Below, piece by piece: positions 3,563-49,216 of a DNA stretch of 49,923 bases. Source of the stretch: an uncultured Acidimicrobium sp. (GTDB lineage Bacteria > Actinomycetota > Acidimicrobiia > Acidimicrobiales > Ilumatobacteraceae); contig CAITUB010000008.1 of NCBI GenBank assembly GCA_903895515.1, positions 1 to 49,923 of the forward strand. Reading direction: 5' to 3'. The notes under the pieces are model-generated. The model ran no database searches. It was given only the letters and a program-made list of their open reading frames with translations, and was not told the origin of the DNA. Both the position numbers and the translations under genes were made by a program. How positions within the stretch are numbered: position 1 is the first letter of the stretch; the number at the start of each line of letters is the position of its first letter.

Positions 3563-3568
3563 AAGGAG
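3563..3568 (+). promoter_or_regulatory. Shine-Dalgarno AAGGAG, 6 nt upstream of the peroxiredoxin ATG
   Basis: acaAGGAGatcaacATG read directly. A TTGACA hexamer at 3514-3519 is a possible -35, but no good -10 follows. Confidence 0.6.
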
Positions 3569-3574
3569 ATCAAC

Positions 3575-4207
3575 ATGTCCGTACGTCTTGGCGATGTCGC
3601 CCCTGACTTCACTGCACAAACCACCCAAGGTGAAATCAAGTTTCACGAATGGTTGGGCGATTCATGGGGCGTGCTGTTTAGCCACCCGAAAGATTTCACA
3701 CCGGTCTGCACCACTGAACTTGGTTATGTAGCCAAGATCAAACCAGAGTTCGACAAGCGCAATGTGAAAGTCATCGGACTTTCAGTTGACAGCGTTGAGT
3801 CACACGAAAAATGGGAAAGCGACATTGGCGAAACTCAGGGAACTCCTGTGAACTTCCCCATGATCGGTGACCCAGATCGCAATGTTTCCAACCTGTACGA
3901 CATGATTCACCCAAATGCAAACGACACCCTCACGGTTCGCAGCGTGTTCGTTATTGGACCAGACAAAAAGGTGAAGCTCACCATCACCTACCCAGCATCA
4001 ACTGGCCGCAACTTTGATGAAGTGCTTCGTGTCATTGACTCGTTGCAACTCACCGCAAAATTCAAAGTGGCAACACCTGCAAACTGGAAAGATGGCAATG
4101 ACGTCATCATCGGTGCTGCCGTAACCGACGAAGAGGCAAAGACCCTCTTCCCTGGTGGCTGGAAGACCGTGAAGCCATACCTTCGTGTTTTGCCGCAACC
4201 AAAGTAA
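3575..4207 (+). CDS. peroxiredoxin, 1-Cys (Prx6-like)
   Basis: LFSHPKDFTPVCTTELG is the peroxidatic Cys motif. 210 aa, typical of the Prx6 subfamily. Confidence 0.85.
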   Translation: MSVRLGDVAPDFTAQTTQGEIKFHEWLGDSWGVLFSHPKDFTPVCTTELGYVAKIKPEFDKRNVKVIGLSVDSVESHEKWESDIGETQGTPVNFPMIGDPDRNVSNLYDMIHPNANDTLTVRSVFVIGPDKKVKLTITYPASTGRNFDEVLRVIDSLQLTAKFKVATPANWKDGNDVIIGAAVTDEEAKTLFPGGWKTVKPYLRVLPQPK

Positions 4208-13684: not shown

Positions 13685-14107
13685 TTAGTTGAGGATGACG
13701 AGCGGGATTTCGCGGTCAGTGCGCTGCTGATACCCGGCATACCCCTTGTACTGCTTCTCCACAATCGGCCACATGCGTGCACGTTCTTCAGTCGTTGCGG
13801 TGCGTGCGGTCATCATTTTGTTAGGTCCACCTTTGTAGCGCACCTGTACCTGTGGATTATCGACCAAGTTCAAATACCACGCAGGATGAAAATCGTCTCC
13901 ACCACGCGAAGCAACGATCACGATGGATTCACCTTCTTGAATTGGTGAAGTCAACATGCAGCTGCGAGGTTTGCCGCTCTTGCGGCCAATTGTGGTGAGT
14001 TCGAGCACAGGCATATTGCCTGCGGTCCAACCCGCTTTACCGCGCGTAACGCCCAGTATCAAACGGTGAATTCCATTCATGGATTTGAGTGCAAAGTTAC
14101 TTGGCAT
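13685..14107 (-). CDS. deazaflavin (F420H2)-dependent nitroreductase family protein (Ddn-like)
   Basis: LTTIGRKSGKPR, GGDDFHPAWYLNL, ERARMWP. The start overlaps the upstream MFS stop by 1 nt. Confidence 0.75.
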   Translation of the reverse strand: MPSNFALKSMNGIHRLILGVTRGKAGWTAGNMPVLELTTIGRKSGKPRSCMLTSPIQEGESIVIVASRGGDDFHPAWYLNLVDNPQVQVRYKGGPNKMMTARTATTEERARMWPIVEKQYKGYAGYQQRTDREIPLVILN

Positions 14108-38458: not shown

Positions 38459-39714
38459 CCAAATACCAGCGCCCGCGCTCGCACTATGCGGTGCTGATAT
38501 TCAACATTGCAATTGCCGCTTCATTGCTCATCGTTGGTGGTGGCCTGTTGTATGCAGGCCAGCGATTGGGTGCTCGTCAAGTTGTCAGTTTGAATCGTGG
38601 CGACGATATTGCCGTCAACGAAGACGCCAATATCGCTCCATCAGACCAATGGAACCTCAGCGAGGGCGACCTCGAGGCAAAAAACTTCCTGCTCACCGGC
38701 TCCGATAATGGCAGCTGTGTAGACCCAAATTCCCCATATGCAGGGGCTTTTGGTGACCGCACATCATTCGGCGAACGCAGCGACACCATCATGATTATTC
38801 GGGTCAATCCGAAGGACAACCAAGCCGCATTTCTCTCGTTTCCACGCGACCTGTGGGTGAAGATTGCAGGATCAACACGATCGAACCGAATTAACACTGC
38901 ATTCGAACGCAAGAACCCCAACACGCTTGCTGACACCATTTATCAAAACTTTGGAATCAACATTGATCACTACGTCAACATTGACTTTTGCGCCTTTAAA
39001 GAAATCGTGGATGCCGTAGGTGGAGTAAAGGTTCCGTTCCTCTACGAAACCCGAGACAAGAAAACAGGTCTGTACGTTCCAGCACCAAGTTGCTTCGAGT
39101 TCAGCGGCGATCATGCACTTGCATACGTTCGTTCACGCTCTGGATATTCATACTTTGACACTGCAAAAAATACATGGGTCTCTGACGGAACCTCCGACCT
39201 CGGTCGAATCAGTCGCCAGCAGGACTTCATTCGTCGAGCAATGCAACGCGCACTCGACAAAGGATCGTCTAGTCCAAAAGTTGCAAACCAACTATTGAAC
39301 GCCGCGTTAAAGAACGTCATTACCGATGACCGGCTTACTCCTATCACCATGTTGCAACTTGCTCAAGCAATGCGCAATTTGAACACCAGTGGAATTCCTA
39401 CATACACAGTTGAAAGTTCTGGACAAATGATTGGCGATCAAGCCGTCCTTGTTCCACGAATTCAAAACGACACTATGCGCGAAATTCTTGCGCTATTCCA
39501 GGGCAAAGCAAGTTTTGCAACACCGGGTTCTGCTGCGAACAATCCTTCGCCGGATACCACTTCTGCTGAAGGTGCCATGGGAGCAATCATTTCTACGGTT
39601 GCCTACATGAATGCACAACCAAGTAACGGTGTTACTCCAACAACAATTCCTGTTGTTGCACCAGAACAAAACTCGTACGGCATTTCGCCACCAAACGACC
39701 CAAGCTGTCGTTAG
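38455..39714 (+). CDS. LCP family (LytR-CpsA-Psr) cell-envelope phosphotransferase
   Basis: N-terminal TM anchor, SDTIMIIRVNP, FLSFPRDLWV, NRINTAF. ATGA overlap with the valS stop. Confidence 0.82.
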   Translation: MTKYQRPRSHYAVLIFNIAIAASLLIVGGGLLYAGQRLGARQVVSLNRGDDIAVNEDANIAPSDQWNLSEGDLEAKNFLLTGSDNGSCVDPNSPYAGAFGDRTSFGERSDTIMIIRVNPKDNQAAFLSFPRDLWVKIAGSTRSNRINTAFERKNPNTLADTIYQNFGINIDHYVNIDFCAFKEIVDAVGGVKVPFLYETRDKKTGLYVPAPSCFEFSGDHALAYVRSRSGYSYFDTAKNTWVSDGTSDLGRISRQQDFIRRAMQRALDKGSSSPKVANQLLNAALKNVITDDRLTPITMLQLAQAMRNLNTSGIPTYTVESSGQMIGDQAVLVPRIQNDTMREILALFQGKASFATPGSAANNPSPDTTSAEGAMGAIISTVAYMNAQPSNGVTPTTIPVVAPEQNSYGISPPNDPSCR

Positions 39715-40559
39715 TCAAGAACGCGACGCATTGCGTCGGGAATATCACTTGGCCCACTCACCGTTGTAAAACGGGCTCCAACAGAATCTGCAAACACTCG
39801 CGCCTCTGCATCATCTTCTAACGGCGCAATGATTACAAGTTCGTCCAATGACTTCGCTGCGGCTCGCGCATCGCCATCAACAGTTGCTCGACAATCAGAC
39901 AACAGCACAGTGATTCTCCGTGATGCTCGTGAGCGTGCAAGTTGTTCTCGTGATGCATGCAATGCCCCGGCCAAGTCGGTGGTACCAAACCCGCGAAGCG
40001 CAAGCACGGTGTTCACCACGTCATCGCCAGACTTATGAACGTCTTGTGACTTCGCCGCAATTACGTCTTTTCCGAATACCAGCACGCTGTAGTCAGCTGG
40101 CTCACGGGCAGCAATAGAGGCTGCAGCCATTGCCGAATTAGCAAGTGGCTTGCCGCCCATCGAGCCACTGCGGTCGACCACAAGACTGATTGCTGTGCCT
40201 GGTCGTAGCCATCCGCGCACACGTAATTCATCGGCATCTACTACACCAGTTGCGCGCAATTCGTTTAGCGCATCCAAGCTTGCATCAATATCAATGTCGC
40301 CAGCATCGGGTTGATATTTGCGCAGCGACATTTTCCCAATTCCGCGCGGTCGAGGTTTTCCACTTTGTGCCAGTTCAATCAAAATTCGTCCGGCCAGTTT
40401 TCGTGCGAGTTCACGTAATGCAGGGTCGGTTGCAGCTGTTAAGTCGGCAAGCATCGACAACGTTTCATCTGGCGAATTCTGCATCGCCTCATCGAAAGCA
40501 ACTTCGTCAAGTTCGCCAACTTCAGGAGAGATCTCTTCAAACCCTGAGTGCTTCGACAA
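39711..40559 (-). CDS. VWA domain protein (MoxR partner)
   Basis: MIDAS motif VVDRSGSMGG. 282 aa. TTG start without a clear SD, so the start is uncertain. Confidence 0.72.
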   Translation of the reverse strand: MSKHSGFEEISPEVGELDEVAFDEAMQNSPDETLSMLADLTAATDPALRELARKLAGRILIELAQSGKPRPRGIGKMSLRKYQPDAGDIDIDASLDALNELRATGVVDADELRVRGWLRPGTAISLVVDRSGSMGGKPLANSAMAAASIAAREPADYSVLVFGKDVIAAKSQDVHKSGDDVVNTVLALRGFGTTDLAGALHASREQLARSRASRRITVLLSDCRATVDGDARAAAKSLDELVIIAPLEDDAEARVFADSVGARFTTVSGPSDIPDAMRRVLD

Positions 40560-40627
40560 TTCTTTGCGTGATGTGGTGCGCTTGCTCGCCTGTTGCGCTG
40601 CCTGTTCGGCCTGCGCGCCTTCTTTAA

Positions 40628-41572
40628 CTAACGGGAGTTCGTTGCCCCAGTCGGGGCGCCAGCTTTTCCCGCGTCGCCGTCTTCCGCTTTCACGCCAAAC
40701 ACATCTGCGAAAATTTCACTAATCACTTCTTCTGCGGTGCGCACACTTCCCTCGCGCAACTTCACCCGACCTGTAAGCGCCACAAGCGCGCTGTCTAATC
40801 CAATTGAGGTGGTTTCAACCGACGCATTACGCATCGCCGACAAACTCGCAGCAACAACTGCCGTATCAATTGCACCACGAACCGATGAACCAAAACGCAA
40901 GTCGGAATGATTCCGCGTGCGTCGTACCATTTCCACTACTTGGCCAACCCAGTCGCGCGACACCTTTGACTTGCTGTTCTGTTTCGTGGTTTCGCGAATC
41001 ACGATTTCTACTTCGTCTGTCGCACTTTGATATGTCATTGCAACGCGGCACACGCGGTCGTACACCGCACTCGAAATACGTGCTGTGCCCACAGCATCAA
41101 ACGGGTTCATTGCCGCAACAAGTCGAAAACCAGCAGCGCTTTTCACGGTGCCAAGTCGTGGAACCGTAATTTCACCTTCGCTCATCACGGTGATGAGCAC
41201 GTTCAATGTTTCTTCCGGAATGCGGTTGATTTCTTCTACGTACAACAACGAACCATCACGCAATGCCGACACCAGTGGTCCATCAACAAACACATCCGCG
41301 CTGTAGCCATCCGTCAGCACTCGCGCAGGGTCGAAGTGTCCGACTAAACGTGCTGGAGTGAGTTCGGCATTGCCTTCAACAAAGGCGAACCCAACGCCAA
41401 GTGCTTCGGCAACAGATCGTAAAAGCGTTGATTTTCCTGTGCCCGGAGGGCCTTCCAACAAGATGTGGCGACCACCATGCAATGCAGCGACGACAAGTTC
41501 TAGTTCGCGCGCGCGACCAACAACCGAAGCTGCCGAAACGCGAAGAACGTCGCTTGCCGACGCTGCTGCCAT
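40628..41572 (-). CDS. MoxR-family AAA+ ATPase
   Basis: HILLEGPPGTGKST (Walker A), LLYVEEINR (Walker B), AAMNP. 314 aa. Confidence 0.88.
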   Translation of the reverse strand: MAAASASDVLRVSAASVVGRARELELVVAALHGGRHILLEGPPGTGKSTLLRSVAEALGVGFAFVEGNAELTPARLVGHFDPARVLTDGYSADVFVDGPLVSALRDGSLLYVEEINRIPEETLNVLITVMSEGEITVPRLGTVKSAAGFRLVAAMNPFDAVGTARISSAVYDRVCRVAMTYQSATDEVEIVIRETTKQNSKSKVSRDWVGQVVEMVRRTRNHSDLRFGSSVRGAIDTAVVAASLSAMRNASVETTSIGLDSALVALTGRVKLREGSVRTAEEVISEIFADVFGVKAEDGDAGKAGAPTGATNSR

Positions 41573-41584
41573 GAGTGTGACTAA

Positions 41585-42697
41585 CTAGTCGAACTTGATA
41601 ACGCCACGGATGTTTTCTCCGTCACGCATTGCTCGGTAACCCTCGTTGATGTCGCTCAGTTTGTATTCCTTGGTGACAAGACCGTCGAGGTCGAGCTGAC
41701 CTTCGCGATACAGGCCCATCAACTTTGGAATGTCGGAACGTGGGTTGCCCGAACCAAACAGCGAACCAACCAACTGCTTTTCCATCAAGGTGAGATCGAG
41801 CAAGCTCATGCCTGCACCAAACTCTGCTGCCGGGTGAATGTTGGTTACAACAACACGACCACGTTTTGCGGTGAGTGCCATTGCTTCGTGAATAACAGCG
41901 CCGTTACCAACGCCCATGGTCATAATCACTTTGTTGGCCATGGTTCCCCATGTCAATTCTTGCAACAGAGGCAACGCTTCAGCCATCGAGTTTGCAGTAT
42001 GTGTTGCACCAAACTCCATTGCCTTTTCGCGCTTGAACTCCACTGGGTCAATTGCAACAATGCGCTTTGCACCAGCAATACGAGCACCCTGAATAGCGTT
42101 GGCACCAATTCCACCGGCACCCACAACGACAACTGTGTCGCCAGGTTTTACTTCTGCTGCATACACGCTTGAGCCCCAACCGGTAACTACACCACAACCG
42201 AGCAAACATGCGCGGTCAAGAGGCACATCTTTTTCAATCTTGATGCAACTTGCTTCGTGCACAACCGTGTGTTCAGCAAACGTTCCAAGGAGGCACATGA
42301 TGCCAACGTCTTTCCCACCGGCGTGGTGACGCGATGTCTGATCACTAATTTGCTTTCCTGTTGCCATATACGCACCAAGGTCGCACAAGTTTTGGTGACC
42401 AGTGCTGCAGCTCACGCAACGACCACATGACGGAATGAATCCGAACACCACGTGATCGCCCGGTGCCAACCAACTGACATTCGATCCAACTTGTTGCACA
42501 ACACCAGCACCTTCGTGACCACCGATAATTGGAAGTTCAAATGGCAAGTCGCCAGTAACCACGTGCTCATCGCTATGGCACATGCCGGAAGCGGCAAGCT
42601 TGACCAACACTTCGTTTGGACCCGGCGCATCAAGTTCAATTTCTTCGATTGTCCATGGAGCATTCAGCTCCCACAACACTGCTGCCTTCGTCTTCAC
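41585..42697 (-). CDS. Zn-dependent alcohol dehydrogenase, NDMA-dependent / mycofactocin-associated type
   Basis: MKTKAAVLWELNAPWTIEEIELD, GMCHSDEH catalytic Zn site, structural CGRCVSCSTG, VVVVGAGGIG Rossmann motif. GTG start with GAGGGGG SD. Divergent from mftA. Confidence 0.8.
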   Translation of the reverse strand: MKTKAAVLWELNAPWTIEEIELDAPGPNEVLVKLAASGMCHSDEHVVTGDLPFELPIIGGHEGAGVVQQVGSNVSWLAPGDHVVFGFIPSCGRCVSCSTGHQNLCDLGAYMATGKQISDQTSRHHAGGKDVGIMCLLGTFAEHTVVHEASCIKIEKDVPLDRACLLGCGVVTGWGSSVYAAEVKPGDTVVVVGAGGIGANAIQGARIAGAKRIVAIDPVEFKREKAMEFGATHTANSMAEALPLLQELTWGTMANKVIMTMGVGNGAVIHEAMALTAKRGRVVVTNIHPAAEFGAGMSLLDLTLMEKQLVGSLFGSGNPRSDIPKLMGLYREGQLDLDGLVTKEYKLSDINEGYRAMRDGENIRGVIKFD

Positions 42698-42818
42698 ACT
42701 GACCCCCTCGTCATGGTCGCCAAGCGCAGGGTGCGCCAGCGAGTTACTGGCTCTATTGTTGCCCAGCCATCGGCGCTGACGCTACCCCGAGCCCGCAGCC
42801 TGAGTACTGTGGACGGTG

Positions 42819-42968
42819 ATGGACACCACAGCACCACTAGCCGTTGATACCGCCCAGGCCCAGACTGCAAGCCACGACAGCGTTTCCTCGGCAACCACCA
42901 CACCGCACATCGTTGAAGAACTCCTCGTTGAGGAAATTTCCATCGACGGCATGTGTGGTGTGTACTAA
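42819..42968 (+). CDS. mftA: mycofactocin precursor peptide MftA
   Basis: Not in the ORF track (49 codons). My translation is MDTTAPLAVDTAQAQTASHDSVSSATTTPHIVEELLVEEISIDGMCGVY followed by TAA. The C-terminal IDGMCGVY signature is present and the ORF ends 17 nt upstream of mftB. An alternative in-frame GTG start lies at 42816. Confidence 0.9.
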   Translation: MDTTAPLAVDTAQAQTASHDSVSSATTTPHIVEELLVEEISIDGMCGVY

Positions 42969-42985
42969 CCCGCAGACGTTTCACT

Positions 42986-43255
42986 ATGACCGTCACCCTG
43001 GATTCAGCGTGTGAGTTGCACCCTCAAGTTGCACTTCGTCCTGAACCATTCGGAGCACTTGCCTATCACTATGGCAATCGCAAACTTGTTTTTTTGAAAC
43101 ACCCAGACGTCGTTGCTGTTCTGCGCGATGTTGCTGCACACGACACACTCGCCGACACGTTGGTTGCACACAATGTTGCACCAGAACGTTGGAATTCATT
43201 TGTGAGCGCACTCAGCTCACTTGAGACATCGGAGATTATTCGTGTCCGTCAGTAA
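42986..43255 (+). CDS. mftB: mycofactocin biosynthesis chaperone MftB (RRE/PqqD-like)
   Basis: LHPQVALRPEPFGALAYHYGNRKLVFLK carries the RPExFGAL signature. ATG at 42986 is preferred. The track start at 42953 (GTG) overlaps the last codons of mftA. Confidence 0.9.
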   Translation: MTVTLDSACELHPQVALRPEPFGALAYHYGNRKLVFLKHPDVVAVLRDVAAHDTLADTLVAHNVAPERWNSFVSALSSLETSEIIRVRQ

Positions 43256-44363
43256 CTTAACCACACAACTCAAGGGCGGGCTTGACGCGCCAATTTGTTT
43301 GACATGGGAACTCACCTATGCATGCAACTTGCAATGCATCCATTGTTTGTCCAGTAGCGGTCGTCGCGACCCGCGAGAGCTTGACACTGATCAAGTGAAG
43401 AACGTTCTTGACCAGTTACGCGACTTGCAAGTGTTCTACATCAACATCGGTGGCGGCGAGCCAATGATTCGCAAAGACTTCTTCGAGATTCTTGAACATG
43501 CCGAGCACAACAACATTGGCGTGAAGTTTTCCACCAACGGCACTTACATCACTGCAGAAAATGCGAAGCGCCTTGCTTCCATGAACTACCTCGATATTCA
43601 AATCAGCATGGACGGCGTCGACCGTGCAACAAATGACGCCGTGCGCGGTGAAGGTTCGTTTGACACATCTATTGCTGCCATGAACCACTTGCGTGATGCA
43701 AACTTTGGACCGTTCAAAATTTCCGTAGTGATGACCCGACACAACGTTGATCAGCTCGATGCTTTCAAGCAACTTGCCGATAGCTACGGCGCGCAACTGC
43801 GTATCACGCGCTTGCGTCCTGCCGGTCGTGGTGCAGATACATGGAATGAATTGCACCCAACTCAGGCACAGCAACGACAGATCTACAACTGGCTTATTGC
43901 ACATGGCGACAACGTGCTTACTGGCGACTCGTTTTTCCATCTCAATGCATTTGGTGAATCGCTTCCAGGTTTGAACTTATGTGGCGCTGGTCGCGTGGTG
44001 TGCCTCATCGACCCAATTGGCGATGTGTATGCATGCCCGTTTGTGATTCACGATCAATTCAAAGCAGGTTCGGTTCACGATGCGGGCGGCTTTGCGAACG
44101 TGTGGCGCAACAGCGATCTATTCCTCTCGCTACGCGAACCAGAGTCGGAAGGTGCATGCACATCGTGTGGCAACTATGACTCATGCCAAGGCGGTTGCAT
44201 GGCGGCAAAGTTCTTTACTGGCTTGCCACTCGATGGCCCAGACCCAGAATGTGTAATAGGCGCAGGCGAATCCTTGCTGAAGAACGCAACCGTGACCCTC
44301 ATTCCAAAACCGAGCATGGACCATTCGCGTAAAGTTTCGGTAACTATTGGGGGAAACAAGTAA
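43221..44363 (+). CDS. mftC: mycofactocin radical SAM maturase MftC
   Basis: GLDAPICLTWELTYACNLQCIHC (CxxxCxxC), SPASM cysteines CGAGRVVC...CPF...CTSCGNYDSCQGGCMAAKFFTGLPLDGPDPEC. Start is TTG 43221 or in-frame GTG 43242; both overlap the end of mftB. Confidence 0.93.
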   Translation: MRHRRLFVSVSNLTTQLKGGLDAPICLTWELTYACNLQCIHCLSSSGRRDPRELDTDQVKNVLDQLRDLQVFYINIGGGEPMIRKDFFEILEHAEHNNIGVKFSTNGTYITAENAKRLASMNYLDIQISMDGVDRATNDAVRGEGSFDTSIAAMNHLRDANFGPFKISVVMTRHNVDQLDAFKQLADSYGAQLRITRLRPAGRGADTWNELHPTQAQQRQIYNWLIAHGDNVLTGDSFFHLNAFGESLPGLNLCGAGRVVCLIDPIGDVYACPFVIHDQFKAGSVHDAGGFANVWRNSDLFLSLREPESEGACTSCGNYDSCQGGCMAAKFFTGLPLDGPDPECVIGAGESLLKNATVTLIPKPSMDHSRKVSVTIGGNK

Positions 44364-45001
44364 TGGACTTTTCATTGAACGGCGTTGAGCCGATTTATGT
44401 AGCGGGCGCAATTATCGTGTCCTACTTTCTCGGCACTATTCCAAGCGCGCTCATCGTTGCTAAGCGCGGCGGTGTTGATGTAACCGCAGAAGGATCTGGT
44501 AACCCTGGAACGTCAAACGTGGTTCGCCTTCTTGGTTGGAAGTACGGCCTCGTGGTGTTTGTATCCGATGTATTGAAGGGTTCTGCCTCGGTTGGTATTG
44601 CGTACTACCTCACACATCACTTCGGTGATGGTCTTAACGTTTCATACTTGGCGTATGCATGCGCATACGCAGCGGTGCTTGGTCACACGTTCCCCGTCAC
44701 TCGTGGTTTCCACGGCGGTAAAGGCGTGGCAACAGGTGGCGGGACCATGTTCGTGCTGTACCCAGTAATGAGTGCAGTGTTGTGCACCTCGTGGTTCGTA
44801 TTGCGCAAACTCACTGGCAAGTCTGCACTTGCTTCACTCATCATCACCATCGCAGTACCTGTGTATGTCATTGCCACTGTTGGATTCGGCGAACCAGACT
44901 CGTGGCAAATTGCTGCCGTACTTGGACTCGTTGGCATGATCATCATTCGTCACCTGCCAAACATTCGACGCATGCGCGCGAACGAGGAACTCGCCGCGTA
45001 A
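44363..45001 (+). CDS. plsY: glycerol-3-phosphate acyltransferase PlsY
   Basis: GSGNPGTSNV, GHTFPV...FHGGKGVATGGG, RHLPNIRRM. The ATG shares its A with the mftC TAA. Confidence 0.85.
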   Translation: MDFSLNGVEPIYVAGAIIVSYFLGTIPSALIVAKRGGVDVTAEGSGNPGTSNVVRLLGWKYGLVVFVSDVLKGSASVGIAYYLTHHFGDGLNVSYLAYACAYAAVLGHTFPVTRGFHGGKGVATGGGTMFVLYPVMSAVLCTSWFVLRKLTGKSALASLIITIAVPVYVIATVGFGEPDSWQIAAVLGLVGMIIIRHLPNIRRMRANEELAA

Positions 45002-45022: not shown

Positions 45023-45637
45023 ATGATTTCACTCATCAATGAGTTCTTTAACGGACTCAAGGATTTTTCTGATTCCTATTGGTTTTACGTCATTATCTTT
45101 GTTATCGCGGTGCTCGATTCCGTGATTCCAATCGTGCCCAGCGAAACATTGGTCATCATTGGTGGAGTTAGCGCTGGTTCGGGTTCGCTATCACTTGGAA
45201 TCGTTCTGTTATGTGCAGCGACTGGTGCATTTATTGGCGACCATGTTTCATACGAAATTGGGAAAAAGGCGAGCGCATTTGTTACCCGTCGTTATGAACG
45301 AACCGAAAAGGGCGCAAAGCGACTCAACGCAGTTATTCACCACATCAATGAACGTGGTGGATTACTGCTTGTGACTGCTCGCTTTATTCCAGGCGGGCGA
45401 ACGATCTTGACCCTGACCTGCGGTATTACCCACCAACGCCAACGATGGTTTTCGGGTTGGATTGCCGTCGCCACCATTATTTGGGCAACATATGCATCGT
45501 TGCTTGGGTTTATCGGCGGAAAGACATTTGCCGACAATCACACGCTGGCCTTTACCTTCGCTTTTGGTTGCGCCATTGGAGTTACGGGTGTGATTGAACT
45601 TGCGCGTTTCATTTTGAAAAAACGCAAGTCACAATAA
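45023..45637 (+). CDS. DedA family (VTT domain) membrane protein
   Basis: VIPIVPSETLVIIGG, RFIPGGRT. 204 aa. Confidence 0.8.
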   Translation: MISLINEFFNGLKDFSDSYWFYVIIFVIAVLDSVIPIVPSETLVIIGGVSAGSGSLSLGIVLLCAATGAFIGDHVSYEIGKKASAFVTRRYERTEKGAKRLNAVIHHINERGGLLLVTARFIPGGRTILTLTCGITHQRQRWFSGWIAVATIIWATYASLLGFIGGKTFADNHTLAFTFAFGCAIGVTGVIELARFILKKRKSQ

Positions 45638-45640
45638 GGC

Positions 45641-46318
45641 ATGCCCAGTTCGCCAACGTGGCCTGAAATTCCACGCAATGCATGTGTCGTCATTCCCGTT
45701 GGCTCTTTCGAACAACACGGTCCGCACTTACCGCTCGACACTGATACACAAATTGCAGTGCACCTGTGTACCGCTGCCACAAAAGGCATCAACCACGTCG
45801 TTATTGCCCCACCGCTGTCAATTACCGCAAGCGGCGAGCACGCAGGATTTCCAGGCACTATTTCTATTGGCACCGAAGCTCTCACCACAGTGATCGTTGA
45901 GCTAGTTCGATCTTGTGATTGGGCAAGTGGCGTGATCTTGGTGCATGGTCACGGTGGAAACTTGGCAGCCGTACAACGAGCAAATACGTTGTTGCATTCT
46001 GAGCAACGCAACATCGCTAGTTGGTGGCCACGCATTCAAGGAGCCGATGCCCATGCCGGACACACGGAGACCTCGCTTATGTTGGCAATTGATCCGCGCT
46101 TAGTTCGTGCCGACAAATTGAACGTGGGCAATGTGCAGCCGATGAGCGAAGTGCAACATGACTTGCAAACACAGGGAGTGAAAGCAGTGAGTGAAAATGG
46201 AATTCTTGGGGACGCTCGCATGGCAACCGCAGAACATGGCGAACAGTTGCTAGCAATGCTCACCGAAGACCTGCGCGCATTCATTCACGCCACTTGCACG
46301 CAATGGAACACTGCGTGA
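45641..46318 (+). CDS. mftE: mycofactocin precursor peptidase MftE (creatininase family)
   Basis: PVGSFEQHGPHLPLDTD, HGHGGN, HAGHTETS. It starts 3 nt after the dedA stop. Confidence 0.85.
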   Translation: MPSSPTWPEIPRNACVVIPVGSFEQHGPHLPLDTDTQIAVHLCTAATKGINHVVIAPPLSITASGEHAGFPGTISIGTEALTTVIVELVRSCDWASGVILVHGHGGNLAAVQRANTLLHSEQRNIASWWPRIQGADAHAGHTETSLMLAIDPRLVRADKLNVGNVQPMSEVQHDLQTQGVKAVSENGILGDARMATAEHGEQLLAMLTEDLRAFIHATCTQWNTA

Positions 46319-47709
46319 CAAGCACTGTTCGCTTCATCGCCGACAGTTCGTGGCGTCGGCCAGCAAACGGAAATGTTGTTCTTGCCGGTTCGCCACTGAA
46401 GTTGTTTTCCCTTTCGCAAGCCGGTCAGGCAATTGCCGAATGCATTGAGCGTGCACAGACTCTTCCTGTAGGTCATGAAGTCCTCACTGAACGATTGCTT
46501 GATGCTGGAGCAATTCACCCAGTTCCAAGCACAGTCGATTCTGCTCGCTTTGTGCTCAACACCGTTACTGCAGTTATTCCTGCCTGCATTCGCACTGCTC
46601 AAGAAGCAGAATCACTGCAGTCGCTCGTTACCTCATGCTCAGCACTGCATGGTGTTGTCGTCGTCGATGACTGCTCGCCACATGCACTTCCCAATCTTGG
46701 TGCGGCACGGGTAATCCGTCTCGAAAAGAACAGTGGACCCGCTGCCGCGCGCAATGCAGGTTTGGCGGTGGTTGATACTCAATTCATTGCCTATATCGAT
46801 GTCGATGTGGCGATTTCCTCCGACACCATTTCGACACTGCTGCCCTATTTCGCAGACGACAAAGTCGCACTCGTTGCACCCCGTGTGAAATCCCCCACAA
46901 CTGCAACCGTTCTTGGGGAATACGAAGCCGTCGCAAGTGTGCTCGACATGGGCGAAACCGAGGCTCGCGTGCGTGCTGGAACTCGCGTCAGTTACGTACC
47001 GTCTGCAATGTGGTTGTGTCGAACTGCATCGCTGCGCTCTATTTCTGGTTTTTCTGATTCACTTCGCTCTGGCGAAGACGTCGACGTGGTGTGGCGCCTC
47101 AACGATGCAGGATGGCGATGTCGCTACCAGCCACAAGCAGAGTGTTCGCATTTGCCTCGCACAACATTGCAGCAGTTCGCGCGACAACGCATGTCGTATG
47201 GAGAATCAGCTGCACCGCTCGCCAAACGACACACAGGGAAACTTGCGCCAGCAAAATTCAATGTGTGGCAAGCATCAACATGGCTCTTAGTTCTGCTCGG
47301 CATGCCATTCATTGCACTTGGAGTTGCAATTGTGGCTTCTGTATCAACTGCAAAGAAACTGAGAAGGTTTCCACAACTGCGTGATGAGAGTTTCCGCATC
47401 GCTCTGCATGGAACAGTACAAAGTGCTCAGACTGCTGCGAGCGCCATCAACCGCGTGTGGTGGCCAATTGCATTTGCGCTTGCATTATTTTCACAGCGAT
47501 TACGAGTGCTGTTCGTAGCTGCAGCACTCGCGCCTGCCGTGTACGAATGGTGGACCAAGCGACCACATCTCGATGTCGTACGTTTTGTGCTCATCAAAAT
47601 GTTGGACAACACCGCTTACGGAGCTGGCGTGTGGAAAGGCGTGATTGCTTCGCGAAATGTCGCGCCGCTTATTCCTACAGTGAAGAAGTCTGTAACGAAC
47701 GAGGAGTGA
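46303..47709 (+). CDS. mftF: mycofactocin system glycosyltransferase MftF (GT2)
   Basis: N-terminal RFIADSSWRRPANGNVVLAGSPLKLFSLS, then VVVDDCS, NSGPAAARNAG, DVDV, plus C-terminal TM helices. Start candidates are TTG 46294, ATG 46303 and GTG 46315 (GTGA overlap with the mftE stop). Confidence 0.85.
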   Translation: MEHCVTSTVRFIADSSWRRPANGNVVLAGSPLKLFSLSQAGQAIAECIERAQTLPVGHEVLTERLLDAGAIHPVPSTVDSARFVLNTVTAVIPACIRTAQEAESLQSLVTSCSALHGVVVVDDCSPHALPNLGAARVIRLEKNSGPAAARNAGLAVVDTQFIAYIDVDVAISSDTISTLLPYFADDKVALVAPRVKSPTTATVLGEYEAVASVLDMGETEARVRAGTRVSYVPSAMWLCRTASLRSISGFSDSLRSGEDVDVVWRLNDAGWRCRYQPQAECSHLPRTTLQQFARQRMSYGESAAPLAKRHTGKLAPAKFNVWQASTWLLVLLGMPFIALGVAIVASVSTAKKLRRFPQLRDESFRIALHGTVQSAQTAASAINRVWWPIAFALALFSQRLRVLFVAAALAPAVYEWWTKRPHLDVVRFVLIKMLDNTAYGAGVWKGVIASRNVAPLIPTVKKSVTNEE

Positions 47710-48172
47710 AGTTATTGCATTCCTCACACACTTCTTGAGGAATAACACCAAATTTCATTAAATATCCAAATGCAATGCAACCGAGGCACACGGCAAATGC
47801 GCTTTCCAGAAACGCTGCGACAACGAGTGCTGCAATGACAAGTTGCGAAGCACCGAATGCACCTGTGATGTACAACACAGATGCGGTAATGGTGAATGCT
47901 GCTCCAACACCTTGAGCAAATCGTTTTGGTGGACCAGGAACAAATCGATGCTGGAGTGAAAGCTTCGGCGTAATCACCTGTGTTGCCAATCGACCAAGTG
48001 GGCTAAATGTTGGGCCGGCCAGCACGCGAGCAATGAACCCATAAGTCAACGGAACAAGAATCCAGCCATTGCCAGTGATCGCAAACGCGATGCCCATGAG
48101 AACTGCACCACCAGCAACGATGCGAGCCGATGTCTCATTCACAGGGTTTGGGAAACTGAAGATTTTCGCCAT
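47675..48172 (-). CDS. DUF4395-like membrane protein
   Basis: FPNPVNETSARIVAGG N-terminus, about 4 TM helices and a Cys-rich C-terminus CLGC...CEEC. 165 aa. Confidence 0.55.
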   Translation of the reverse strand: MAKIFSFPNPVNETSARIVAGGAVLMGIAFAITGNGWILVPLTYGFIARVLAGPTFSPLGRLATQVITPKLSLQHRFVPGPPKRFAQGVGAAFTITASVLYITGAFGASQLVIAALVVAAFLESAFAVCLGCIAFGYLMKFGVIPQEVCEECNNFTPRSLQTSSL

Positions 48173-48232
48173 TCCATAAGCCTAAAGGTCAATTGTTGAC
48201 TTAACAAGTCGGCTTTTAACCGGTTGCCCGCG

Positions 48233-49216
48233 ATGCCCGAAAACAGTCAGATACCGTCAAGTGCAATGACTTTGTGCCTCACCGTGAATCGCCAAGCTTG
48301 GCTCGATCACGTTCGACTTACCGCTTCCCAGCACGGCACCACCCTGCCCGTAGTGAAGGGCAACGGCTACGGGTTTGGTCGCCCAATTCTGTTCGAACAG
48401 ACAGCACATCTTGCTGAGCATGTTGCAGTGGGAAACGTCTATGAAGCCACAGATGTTCCCGCATCGCTTTCTCCTGTTGTGCTCACACCTGTTGGCTCAC
48501 ATATTCCACATTCGCTCCCAACACGCTCAGTACTCACTGTTGGATCGCTCGATCACGTTGCATCGCTTCGCTCACACAATTGGCAAGGCAGTGTGCTCAT
48601 CAAGTTGCAGTCCACCATGCAACGCTTTGGCGTTTCCGGAGGCGACCTGGCTGCACTTCGTTCTGCATGCGAGCAGGCATCGCTCAATGTTGTTGGCTAT
48701 TCAATACACCCTCCACTAAATAACAATGGACAAGACCGCAGTGGCGAAGTGTCGTGTTGGCTAGAACTGTTAACCGATAATTTGCCAATTCACGTCAGTC
48801 ACCTCACTGCTGAGCAAATTGGTCTGTTGCGATCACAGTTTCCGAAGCGCACGTTTATTTCACGCATCGGAACGGCATTGTGGCTAGGTGACAAATCCAT
48901 GATGAAACTGACGGCCGAAGTACTCGACGTTCATCAAGTTGATGGTGGAACAGCTGGTTACCGATCAATCGCACTTCCTGGATCTGGACATCTCGTCATT
49001 GTCGGTGCAGGATCGGCGCACGGAGTAAGTGAAATTGTGGGGGTAGGAAGTCCGTTTCATTTTGCACAGCAACGCATTGCACTTGTTGAACCACCACACA
49101 TGCACAGCAGCATGCTGTTCTTTCCTGCAGGTCAAACCGTTCCGCGCATTGGCGATCAAGTTGACGTTCAGCAACCACTCACCCGCGTAAGCGCTGACAC
49201 CATTTCGTGGGAATAA
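48233..49216 (+). CDS. alanine racemase-fold (fold-type III PLP) protein, divergent
   Basis: LPVVKGNGYGFG resembles the alanine racemase PLP-Lys motif VVKANAYGHG. IKLQSTMQRFG resembles KVDTGMGRLG. Only ~328 aa and divergent elsewhere. Confidence 0.55.
   Translation: MPENSQIPSSAMTLCLTVNRQAWLDHVRLTASQHGTTLPVVKGNGYGFGRPILFEQTAHLAEHVAVGNVYEATDVPASLSPVVLTPVGSHIPHSLPTRSVLTVGSLDHVASLRSHNWQGSVLIKLQSTMQRFGVSGGDLAALRSACEQASLNVVGYSIHPPLNNNGQDRSGEVSCWLELLTDNLPIHVSHLTAEQIGLLRSQFPKRTFISRIGTALWLGDKSMMKLTAEVLDVHQVDGGTAGYRSIALPGSGHLVIVGAGSAHGVSEIVGVGSPFHFAQQRIALVEPPHMHSSMLFFPAGQTVPRIGDQVDVQQPLTRVSADTISWE

Follow-up and report, generated by a model that had tools for sequence, protein, structure and literature searches.

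A mycofactocin precursor gene with a long, variable N-terminal region and a probably leaderless transcript in an uncultured freshwater Acidimicrobiia bacterium

The stretch of DNA analyzed here, 49,923 nucleotides (nt) of contig CAITUB010000008.1 and referred to below as the window, has a GC content of ~51% and derives from an uncultured freshwater Acidimicrobiia bacterium of the Ilumatobacteraceae type. Its closest relatives are freshwater Acidimicrobiia metagenome-assembled genomes (MAGs), mostly labelled Ilumatobacteraceae, and the best of these encodes a 99% identical MftC. Between a divergent alcohol dehydrogenase (ADH) gene and mftB lies an unlisted open reading frame (ORF) at 42819–42968 on the forward strand. 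An earlier interpretation made from the letters alone (the sequence-only reading) proposed that this ORF is mftA, the gene for the precursor peptide of mycofactocin, with an extended leader and perhaps a leaderless transcript. Direct translation matched that reading exactly: 49 codons, giving MDTTAPLAVDTAQAQTASHDSVSSATTTPHIVEELLVEEISIDGMCGVY, are followed by TAA, which comes immediately after a C-terminal ISIDGMCGVY. The genes of the operon are arranged in the order mftA-mftB-mftC-plsY-like-dedA-like-mftE-mftF.

Two family models recognize the product as a mycofactocin precursor with scores twice their cut-offs. TIGR03969, the TIGRFAMs/NCBIfam model that the sequence-only reading had suggested as a check, gave 53.9 bits (cut-off 25), and PF23709 gave 52.2 bits (cut-off 27); both align to MftA residues 25/28–49 only. 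In a set of 80 related loci, mftA was located in 75, where an MftA-type peptide recurs beside mftB/mftC, as that reading expected. Scores of this size, together with this recurrence, place the ORF far beyond chance. Assemblies from four public pipelines (JGI, Logan, NCBI, and ENA) likewise contain independent calls of the identical 49-amino-acid gene. Family models, C-terminal motif, and gene context all agree on the proposed assignment, and we are nearly certain that 42819–42968 is a genuine, expressed mftA. Two antisense ORFs that lie over the gene (42694–42996 and 42782–42952) were rejected as spurious, having zero family matches, and tRNA and Rfam scans of the whole window returned nothing. 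The gene had been described as lying in the largest non-coding gap of the window; that label depends on the ORF track used, and other apparent gaps hold ORFs of 100–140 amino acids. For annotation, the lesson is that a real, highly expressed 49-codon gene escapes a 60-amino-acid ORF cut-off.

On the reverse strand, divergent from mftA, is a gene for a zinc ADH of the NDMA-dependent (mycofactocin-coupled) type (41585–42697; TIGR03989, 560.9 bits, cut-off 440). On the forward strand, mftA is followed by mftB, encoding a PqqD/RRE-type peptide chaperone (42986–43255; TIGR03967, 90.9 bits, cut-off 33), and by mftC, encoding a radical SAM/SPASM maturase (43221–44363; TIGR03962, 592 bits, cut-off 265), for which public gene calls start at GTG 43242 and yield 373 amino acids. 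Next come a homologue of PlsY-family acyl-phosphate:glycerol-3-phosphate acyltransferases (44363–45001; PF02660, 141.7 bits; TIGR00023, 129 bits, under its cut-off of 137) and a DedA/VTT-family membrane protein that is UptA-like (45023–45637; PF09335, 68.4 bits, with weak matches to the UptA and DedA NCBIfam models). The set is completed by mftE, encoding a creatininase-family peptidase predicted to release the modified Val-Tyr core (45641–46318; TIGR03964, 273 bits, cut-off 172), and mftF, encoding a GT2 glycosyltransferase (46294–47709; TIGR03965, 373 bits, cut-off 280). The junctions overlap or are 3–22 nt long. There are 17 nt between the mftA stop and the mftB start, mftC overlaps mftB, the mftC stop overlaps the start of the plsY-like gene (TAATG), and mftE begins 3 nt past the dedA-like stop.

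The 121-nt gap between the ADH gene and mftA (42698–42818) contains just three TANNNT hexamers, all of them within conserved blocks. TACTGT (42805–42810, forward strand), inside the block TGAGTACTGTGG, is the putative −10 element of a proximal mftA promoter with a predicted start at 42818/42819; it ends 8 nt before the ATG, as the sequence-only reading stated. TATTGT (42754–42759, forward strand), in a block conserved across 10 strains, is a weak candidate −10 element for a possible minor upstream mftA promoter (predicted start 42766–42768). TAGCGT (42779–42784, reverse strand) is the candidate −10 element of the divergent ADH gene; with a predicted start at 42770–42772, it would give a leader of ~73 nt that includes a GAGGGG Shine-Dalgarno sequence. 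A sigma-70 consensus scan of 42500–43100 found no promoter, which is expected for actinobacterial promoters consisting of a −10 element only and hence uninformative. No inverted repeats (at least 6-nt seed) that might serve as operators were found in the 121-nt gap. A terminator-like hairpin at 42735–42751 was dismissed as a terminator, since it has no forward-strand gene in front of it and the T-rich tail coincides with the TATTGT hexamer.

Comparison with relatives singles out the proximal element. In close relatives, the only alignable feature of the DNA upstream of mftA is a TAC-NN-T hexamer whose distance to the ATG is fixed. A TANNNT hexamer lies 5–8 nt ahead of the nearest ATG in 56 of the 75 related loci, against a background frequency, among all ATG triplets of the same DNA, of 1.3%. 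Thirty of these loci have a 7-nt spacing, 17 a 6-nt spacing, and 9 an 8-nt spacing. When any candidate start is permitted, the count rises to 61 of 75, and the motif picks a longer start in five loci (L033, L036, L053, L059, and L072). A −10 hexamer beside the ATG is shared by most Acidimicrobiia mftA copies and offers a simple rule for correcting MftA start sites in this class. Most loci that lack the motif have instead a GGAGG-type Shine-Dalgarno sequence 5–9 nt upstream of mftA. They are mainly outgroups (Streptomyces, Actinomadura, Spirillospora, Solirubrobacterales, and some Acidimicrobiales), and the first four of these differ from the window also in having retained mftD.

Ten strain-level sequences resolve the element further. 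The TGAGTACTGTGG block is kept in all of them; the 8 nt that follow vary in sequence but never in length. A pyrimidine invariably occupies position −2 and a purine position −1, a pair that, with the footprint of conservation, is consistent with a transcription start at 42818 or 42819. The sequence-only reading took GGACGG (42811–42816, 2 nt ahead of the ATG) for Shine-Dalgarno complementarity. This is not meaningful, as it falls within the 8 nt that vary freely among strains.

The same arrangement is found elsewhere in the window, where TANNNT lies exactly 6 nt before the start codon of 13 of 43 genes (~30%), among them the divergent pair 18146(−)/18767(+). Few of the 43 have a clear Shine-Dalgarno sequence; the divergent ADH gene is one that does. 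Judged from these sequences, a leaderless-type layout appears to be routine in this genome and the default for operon-first genes, and the sequence-only reading overstated its significance. Like leaderless mRNAs of actinobacteria, the predicted mftA transcript has a −10-only promoter, no Shine-Dalgarno sequence, and a start codon at most 1 nt from the predicted 5′ end. Compared with the 6-nt spacing of the other such genes in the window, the 8-nt spacing at mftA makes a 1-nt leader likely.

Public RNA data bear on the same question. Many metatranscriptomes from freshwater, rivers, and estuaries contain the locus, and 17 RNA-labelled runs have mftA coverage. The Logan contigs built from them carry no strand information and no 5′-end chemistry, and their ends are used here as a proxy for transcript ends. 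In 14 of the 17 runs the mftA contig starts inside the ORF: at 42827 in seven, at 42826 in one, and at 42831, 42840, 42843, 42852, 42876, and 42922 in the remaining six. None of these 14 runs has a contig over ~42762–42825, even at contig depths of 17–31. As a control, unlabelled DNA-like runs cover the gap continuously. One run has sequencing adapter joined directly to 42827, which marks this position as a true end of cDNA fragments. On the ADH side, the RNA contigs stop at 42755 and 42761, where adapter sequence is joined to them. The conserved hexamer and the contigs that start within the ORF support the leaderless transcript suggested earlier; on the comparative and metatranscriptome evidence together, the mftA transcript probably has no leader or a leader of 1 nt, and we consider it likely that this holds for the major transcript.

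The first alternative is that the main mftA transcript is leadered. Transcription would begin at ~42766, for example from TATTGT; ribosomes would begin translation internally, at 42819, with no Shine-Dalgarno sequence; and processing of the RNA, or an effect of assembly, would explain the boundary at 42827. Several observations favor this model and weigh against a leaderless transcript. TATTGT sits in a conserved block, and three RNA-like runs (X26–X28) have contigs that reach upstream to 42798, to 42772, or across the whole gap. DNA contamination was ruled out as a source of these contigs, since depth in the three runs is strongly peaked on ADH-mftA-mftB. In addition, the sharp RNA boundary seen in eight runs at 42826/42827 lies at +8 and not at the AUG. 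Contig ends at other putatively leaderless genes range from −3 to +35 nt, a calibration too noisy to use, and the 8-nt spacing between hexamer and ATG departs from the 6 nt found at the other 12 such genes of the window. Against a leadered transcript stand the 14 runs without RNA over 42762–42825 and the TACTGT-type hexamer, which in 56 of 75 loci has kept its 6–8-nt distance to the ATG despite flanks that cannot be aligned. Moreover, a transcript that truly began at 42826/42827 would exclude the only usable start codon. We infer that the +8 boundary represents the true 5′ end minus the terminal nucleotides that are lost in standard cDNA libraries. A leadered main transcript is, on balance, quite unlikely, and TATTGT could drive a minor leadered isoform alongside a leaderless major one.

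Whatever its exact 5′ end, the transcript is polycistronic: single RNA contigs run through mftA and mftB into the start of mftC, and the three genes are co-transcribed. In four river, estuary, and freshwater metatranscriptomes, the ADH gene and mftA-mftB (41585–43255) are by far the best covered part of the 38–50 kb region. This coverage suggests that the oxidation of alcohols or aldehydes, linked to mycofactocin, is active in an abundant freshwater lineage that has not been cultured. In the same four data sets mftC to mftF are barely covered, and the drop after mftB suggests that polarity is strong or that the 5′ part of the operon RNA has a stability of its own.

The peptide itself falls into two parts. 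The first (codons 1–30, 42819–42908) is a variable N-terminal extension, rich in Thr, Ala, Ser, and Gln, that has no hydrophobic stretch and lies outside the model matches. The second (codons 31–49, 42909–42965, IVEELLVEEISIDGMCGVY) comprises the conserved recognition region and the core, Val48-Tyr49 (42960–42965), and these residues are invariant in 13 homologues. Nei-Gojobori analysis of ten strain-level mftA genes separates the two sharply. Codons 2–30 have a dN/dS of 0.50 (dS 0.36) with 22 of 29 residues variable; codons 31–49 have a dN/dS of 0.01 (dS 0.49) with none of 19 variable. By this measure, purifying selection on the C-terminal 19 residues is very strong, and the extension is only weakly constrained, as expected of a disordered spacer.

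The sequence-only reading described the leader as extended, being ~20 residues longer than in the ~30-residue mycobacterial peptides. The difference from mycobacteria is real, M. smegmatis mftA being 93 nt long (PMC8728441). What was overstated is its special significance, for lengths of 40–50 amino acids are the norm outside mycobacteria, and a range of 30–80 amino acids was given in earlier literature (PMC5264612; also PMC3023750). Across the 75 related loci the median MftA length is 40 amino acids (range 30–60) when the nearest ATG is taken and 39 when the shortest possible start is taken; several peptides have 47–60 residues, only five loci encode at least 49, and the window peptide belongs to the upper tail. 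A family-wide profile search of 1.84 billion representative proteins returned 6,386 MftA clusters. The best 150 of these have a median of 48 amino acids, all 150 end in CG[VI]Y, and they share with the window MftA an acidic N-terminal composition rich in A, T, E, D, P, and S. Conservation of the leader, which the earlier reading suggested checking, depends on the distance considered. Nine close homologues (73–94% identical) are each exactly 49 amino acids long; in wider relatives neither length nor sequence of the extension is kept, and it cannot be aligned despite an identical core. The features that seemed striking are normal for the lineage and in part already documented, and the window gene is a new member of a known family.

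Leader length evidently drifts, and tandem duplication is one route. In three relatives (L044, L056, and L059) short tandem duplications beside the core lengthen the leader (LIDNELLIDNELLIEE, LLTEELLTEELLVEE, and VGDMVGDMVADIVAD). In the window mftA, no tandem or direct repeats were found from which the extension could have originated, the sole repeat being the family-wide VEELL/VEEIS pseudo-repeat in the core. A separate oddity was seen in one Acidimicrobiia locus (L048, 5402–5604), where a normal mftA is accompanied by two further ORFs upstream, in each of which an unrelated, Arg-rich sequence leads into a terminal ...HGMCGVY; these may be degenerate duplicated mftA 3′ ends.

A second alternative concerns the extension, whose 30 residues might be functional, providing a second contact with MftB or MftC, protecting against proteolysis, or acting as a released leader. 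The length of exactly 49 amino acids is retained in the ten strain-level sequences with zero indels, in spite of low-complexity composition and up to 27% divergence; dN/dS at 0.50 is below the neutral value of 1; and the acidic Thr/Ala-rich composition is common to the whole family. Fixed length and dN/dS leave a small margin for a function of the extension and count to that extent against a mere spacer. However, 22 of 29 positions vary within the clade, and relatives with an identical core carry 30–60-amino-acid peptides with unalignable sequence. Mycobacterial peptides of ~30 amino acids are, furthermore, fully processed in vitro by MftB, MftC, and MftE (literature cited in PMC5264612 and PMC11778925). 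We therefore think it doubtful that the extension has a role of its own and favor a weakly constrained spacer.

The start codon is all but forced by the sequence. The open frame contains ATG, GTG, or TTG codons only at 42816 (GTG), 42819 (ATG), Met45, and Val48. Because no such codon occurs between 42819 and Met45, the product has 49 or 50 amino acids, barring initiation at a non-canonical codon, and the long leader is translated. The longer product would arise from GTG 42816, in frame and directly upstream of the ATG, with transcription from that same G, 5 nt after the hexamer. A 5′-terminal GUG can serve leaderless initiation in actinobacteria, and this counts in favor of the GTG. Yet that codon is GTA or CCA in five of ten strains in which ATGGAC is invariant, relatives keep ATG-GA(N) without an upstream GTG, and a distance of 5 nt between hexamer and start is found at no other gene of the window, so that initiation at the GTG is very improbable. 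That the long N terminus is a start-site artefact hiding a real peptide of ~25–30 amino acids, as might be supposed from a family model that spans the last 23 residues only and from the attribution of unalignable MftA N-terminal regions largely to wrong start predictions (Haft 2011; PMC3023750), is next to impossible here given the lack of an in-frame start between codons 1 and 45, the median of 39 amino acids for the shortest possible MftA over 75 loci, and the −10 element that adjoins the ATG of the long form. What is new is that, in the clade of the window, the extension cannot be such an artefact and is truly translated.

We consider it likely that these observations combine into a single picture, in which mftA heads its operon, is expressed from a leaderless −10-only promoter, and encodes a two-part peptide of 49 residues. 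The promoter TACTGT (42805–42810) would give an mRNA starting at the AUG or 1 nt before it, and ribosomes would initiate on the 5′-terminal AUG with no need for a Shine-Dalgarno sequence. MftB would bind the invariant acidic C-terminal 19 residues (IVEELLVEEISIDGMCGVY) and hand MftA to MftC. By analogy with mycobacteria, MftC would remove the carboxyl group of Tyr49 and join this residue to Val48 by a cross-link, MftE would cut after Gly47 to free the two-residue core, and MftF would glycosylate that core; the first 30 residues, probably a disordered spacer, would be discarded. The mycobacterial MftC and MftE chemistry is taken from work cited in PMC5264612 and PMC11778925. The invariant core and the accompanying mftB, mftC, and mftE genes lead us to infer that MftA is a substrate of MftC and MftE. 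The data show which family the peptide belongs to, its gene neighborhood, the constraint on its start codon, the conservation of the promoter element, its expression in one transcript with mftB and mftC, and the contrast in selection; the precise start of the RNA, the modification steps, and a dispensable extension are proposed.

Set beside known systems, the window MftA resembles that of M. tuberculosis, M. smegmatis, and M. ulcerans in its C-terminal IDGMCGVY and the acidic LVEE-type region that precedes it. As in mycobacteria, the gene lies directly before mftB/mftC, with an NDMA-dependent or nicotinoprotein dehydrogenase nearby. MftA proteins of other Acidimicrobiia (Ilumatobacteraceae MAGs), Streptomyces, Actinomadura, and Frankia combine the same core with a long, variable, acidic, Thr/Ala-rich extension, as does the window protein. 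Of the canonical six-gene mftA–F cluster, mftE and mftF are present, whereas mftD, an adjacent mftR, and a palindromic operator were not found. M. smegmatis, in contrast, has an MftR operator at −79 to −53; no mftR (TIGR03968) or mftG was found in the 49.9-kb window or in syntenic 20-kb loci of other assemblies, and no inverted repeat in the upstream gap. There is also an analogy, and an analogy only, with PqqA/PqqD/PqqE of the pyrroloquinoline quinone (PQQ) system: a small ribosomal peptide, a PqqD-like chaperone, a radical SAM/SPASM enzyme (MftC of the window scores 125 bits to PqqE), and a redox cofactor as end product. Peptide family, cross-link chemistry, and cofactor are different.

In mycobacteria, MftD creates the redox-active keto-amide and is required for the redox-active cofactor. 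No mftD (TIGR03966/FMN_dh) was found among the gene-like ORFs of at least 150 amino acids in the 49.9-kb window, or in syntenic 20-kb loci from other assemblies (L081–L083). Unlike mycobacterial clusters, that of the window has plsY-like and dedA-like genes between mftC and mftE. In tblastn searches with verified MftD probes (650–690 bits to TIGR03966), mftD was detected in six of the 80 related loci, all of outgroup type and all without PlsY. In 43 of the 80 the gene after mftC is plsY-like, and no locus has both this gene and mftD; a dedA-like gene occupies the same position as in the window in L001–L003, L005, L007, L008, and L021. The PlsY-like protein keeps the GSGNPGTSN, DVLKG, and GHTFPV..GGKG motifs, which are the catalytic motifs of its family, and aligns to 5XJ5 with 85 bits. 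Among relatives, recognized genes of the mycofactocin system, namely those for old yellow enzyme (OYE)-type oxidoreductases 1 and 2 and for a mycofactocin-associated EtfA, are intermixed with the plsY-like and dedA-like genes. The order differs between loci (in L006 it is mftABC, OYE1, PlsY, OYE2, DedA, mft-EtfA), which speaks for a functional link beyond inherited synteny.

One interpretation is that freshwater Acidimicrobiia of the Ilumatobacteraceae type run a distinct mycofactocin variant, with a leaderless, MftD-less operon that has recruited a PlsY-family acyltransferase and an UptA-like DedA protein. We advance this tentatively, as a possibility that is more likely wrong than right. If true, it would imply either that MftD has a replacement not yet recognized or that the same Val-Tyr core gives rise to a glycosylated product that is lipid-linked or membrane-associated. 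Alternatively, the plsY-like and dedA-like genes could be housekeeping envelope genes that share the operon, and mftD could be encoded elsewhere in the genome. The absence of mftD from the window also weighs on the mechanism set out above, since the downstream chemistry may be different. MftD has been described as "not universal" (Haft 2011; PMC3023750), and the literature searched contained no paper linking mycofactocin with PlsY, DedA, or Acidimicrobiia. The mftD-less cluster with its PlsY and DedA genes is the part of the locus that could lead to new biochemistry and is a lead worth following.

Two further genes follow mftF, neither of which has a curated mycofactocin family. One, on the reverse strand, encodes a DUF4395 protein (47675–48172; PF14340, 118.6 bits) and also follows mftF in L002, L008, L030, and L081. 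The other, on the forward strand, encodes a pyridoxal phosphate (PLP) enzyme of the alanine-racemase type (fold type III; 48224–49216; PF01168, 41 bits, with weak alanine racemase matches at E ~1e-4); a PLP-enzyme gene of ~320–330 amino acids occurs after mftF in L002, L004, L005, L008, L021, and L081. This protein (ORF330) was considered as a stand-in for MftD. No case could be made for it, as the similarity of its PLP barrel is only distant and it matches no sequence in the PDB.

Several other genes of the window merit brief mention. Directly downstream of the ADH gene and in the same orientation are genes for a MoxR-type AAA ATPase and a VWA-domain protein (39711–41572, reverse strand). Many related loci contain this ADH-MoxR-VWA trio as well, often alongside a second ADH paralogue, and the MoxR and VWA proteins may work as a pair to activate or chaperone the dehydrogenase. 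At 13685–14107 (reverse strand) lies a gene for a 140-amino-acid, Ddn-like F420H2-dependent quinone reductase (PF04075), which suggests that the organism also uses cofactor F420. Within 1–20 kb of the window, a peroxiredoxin gene (3575–4207) has by far the highest RNA contig depth, exceeding 100 in two runs; one of its contigs carries an adapter at 3568, 7 nt before the ATG and downstream of AGGAG.

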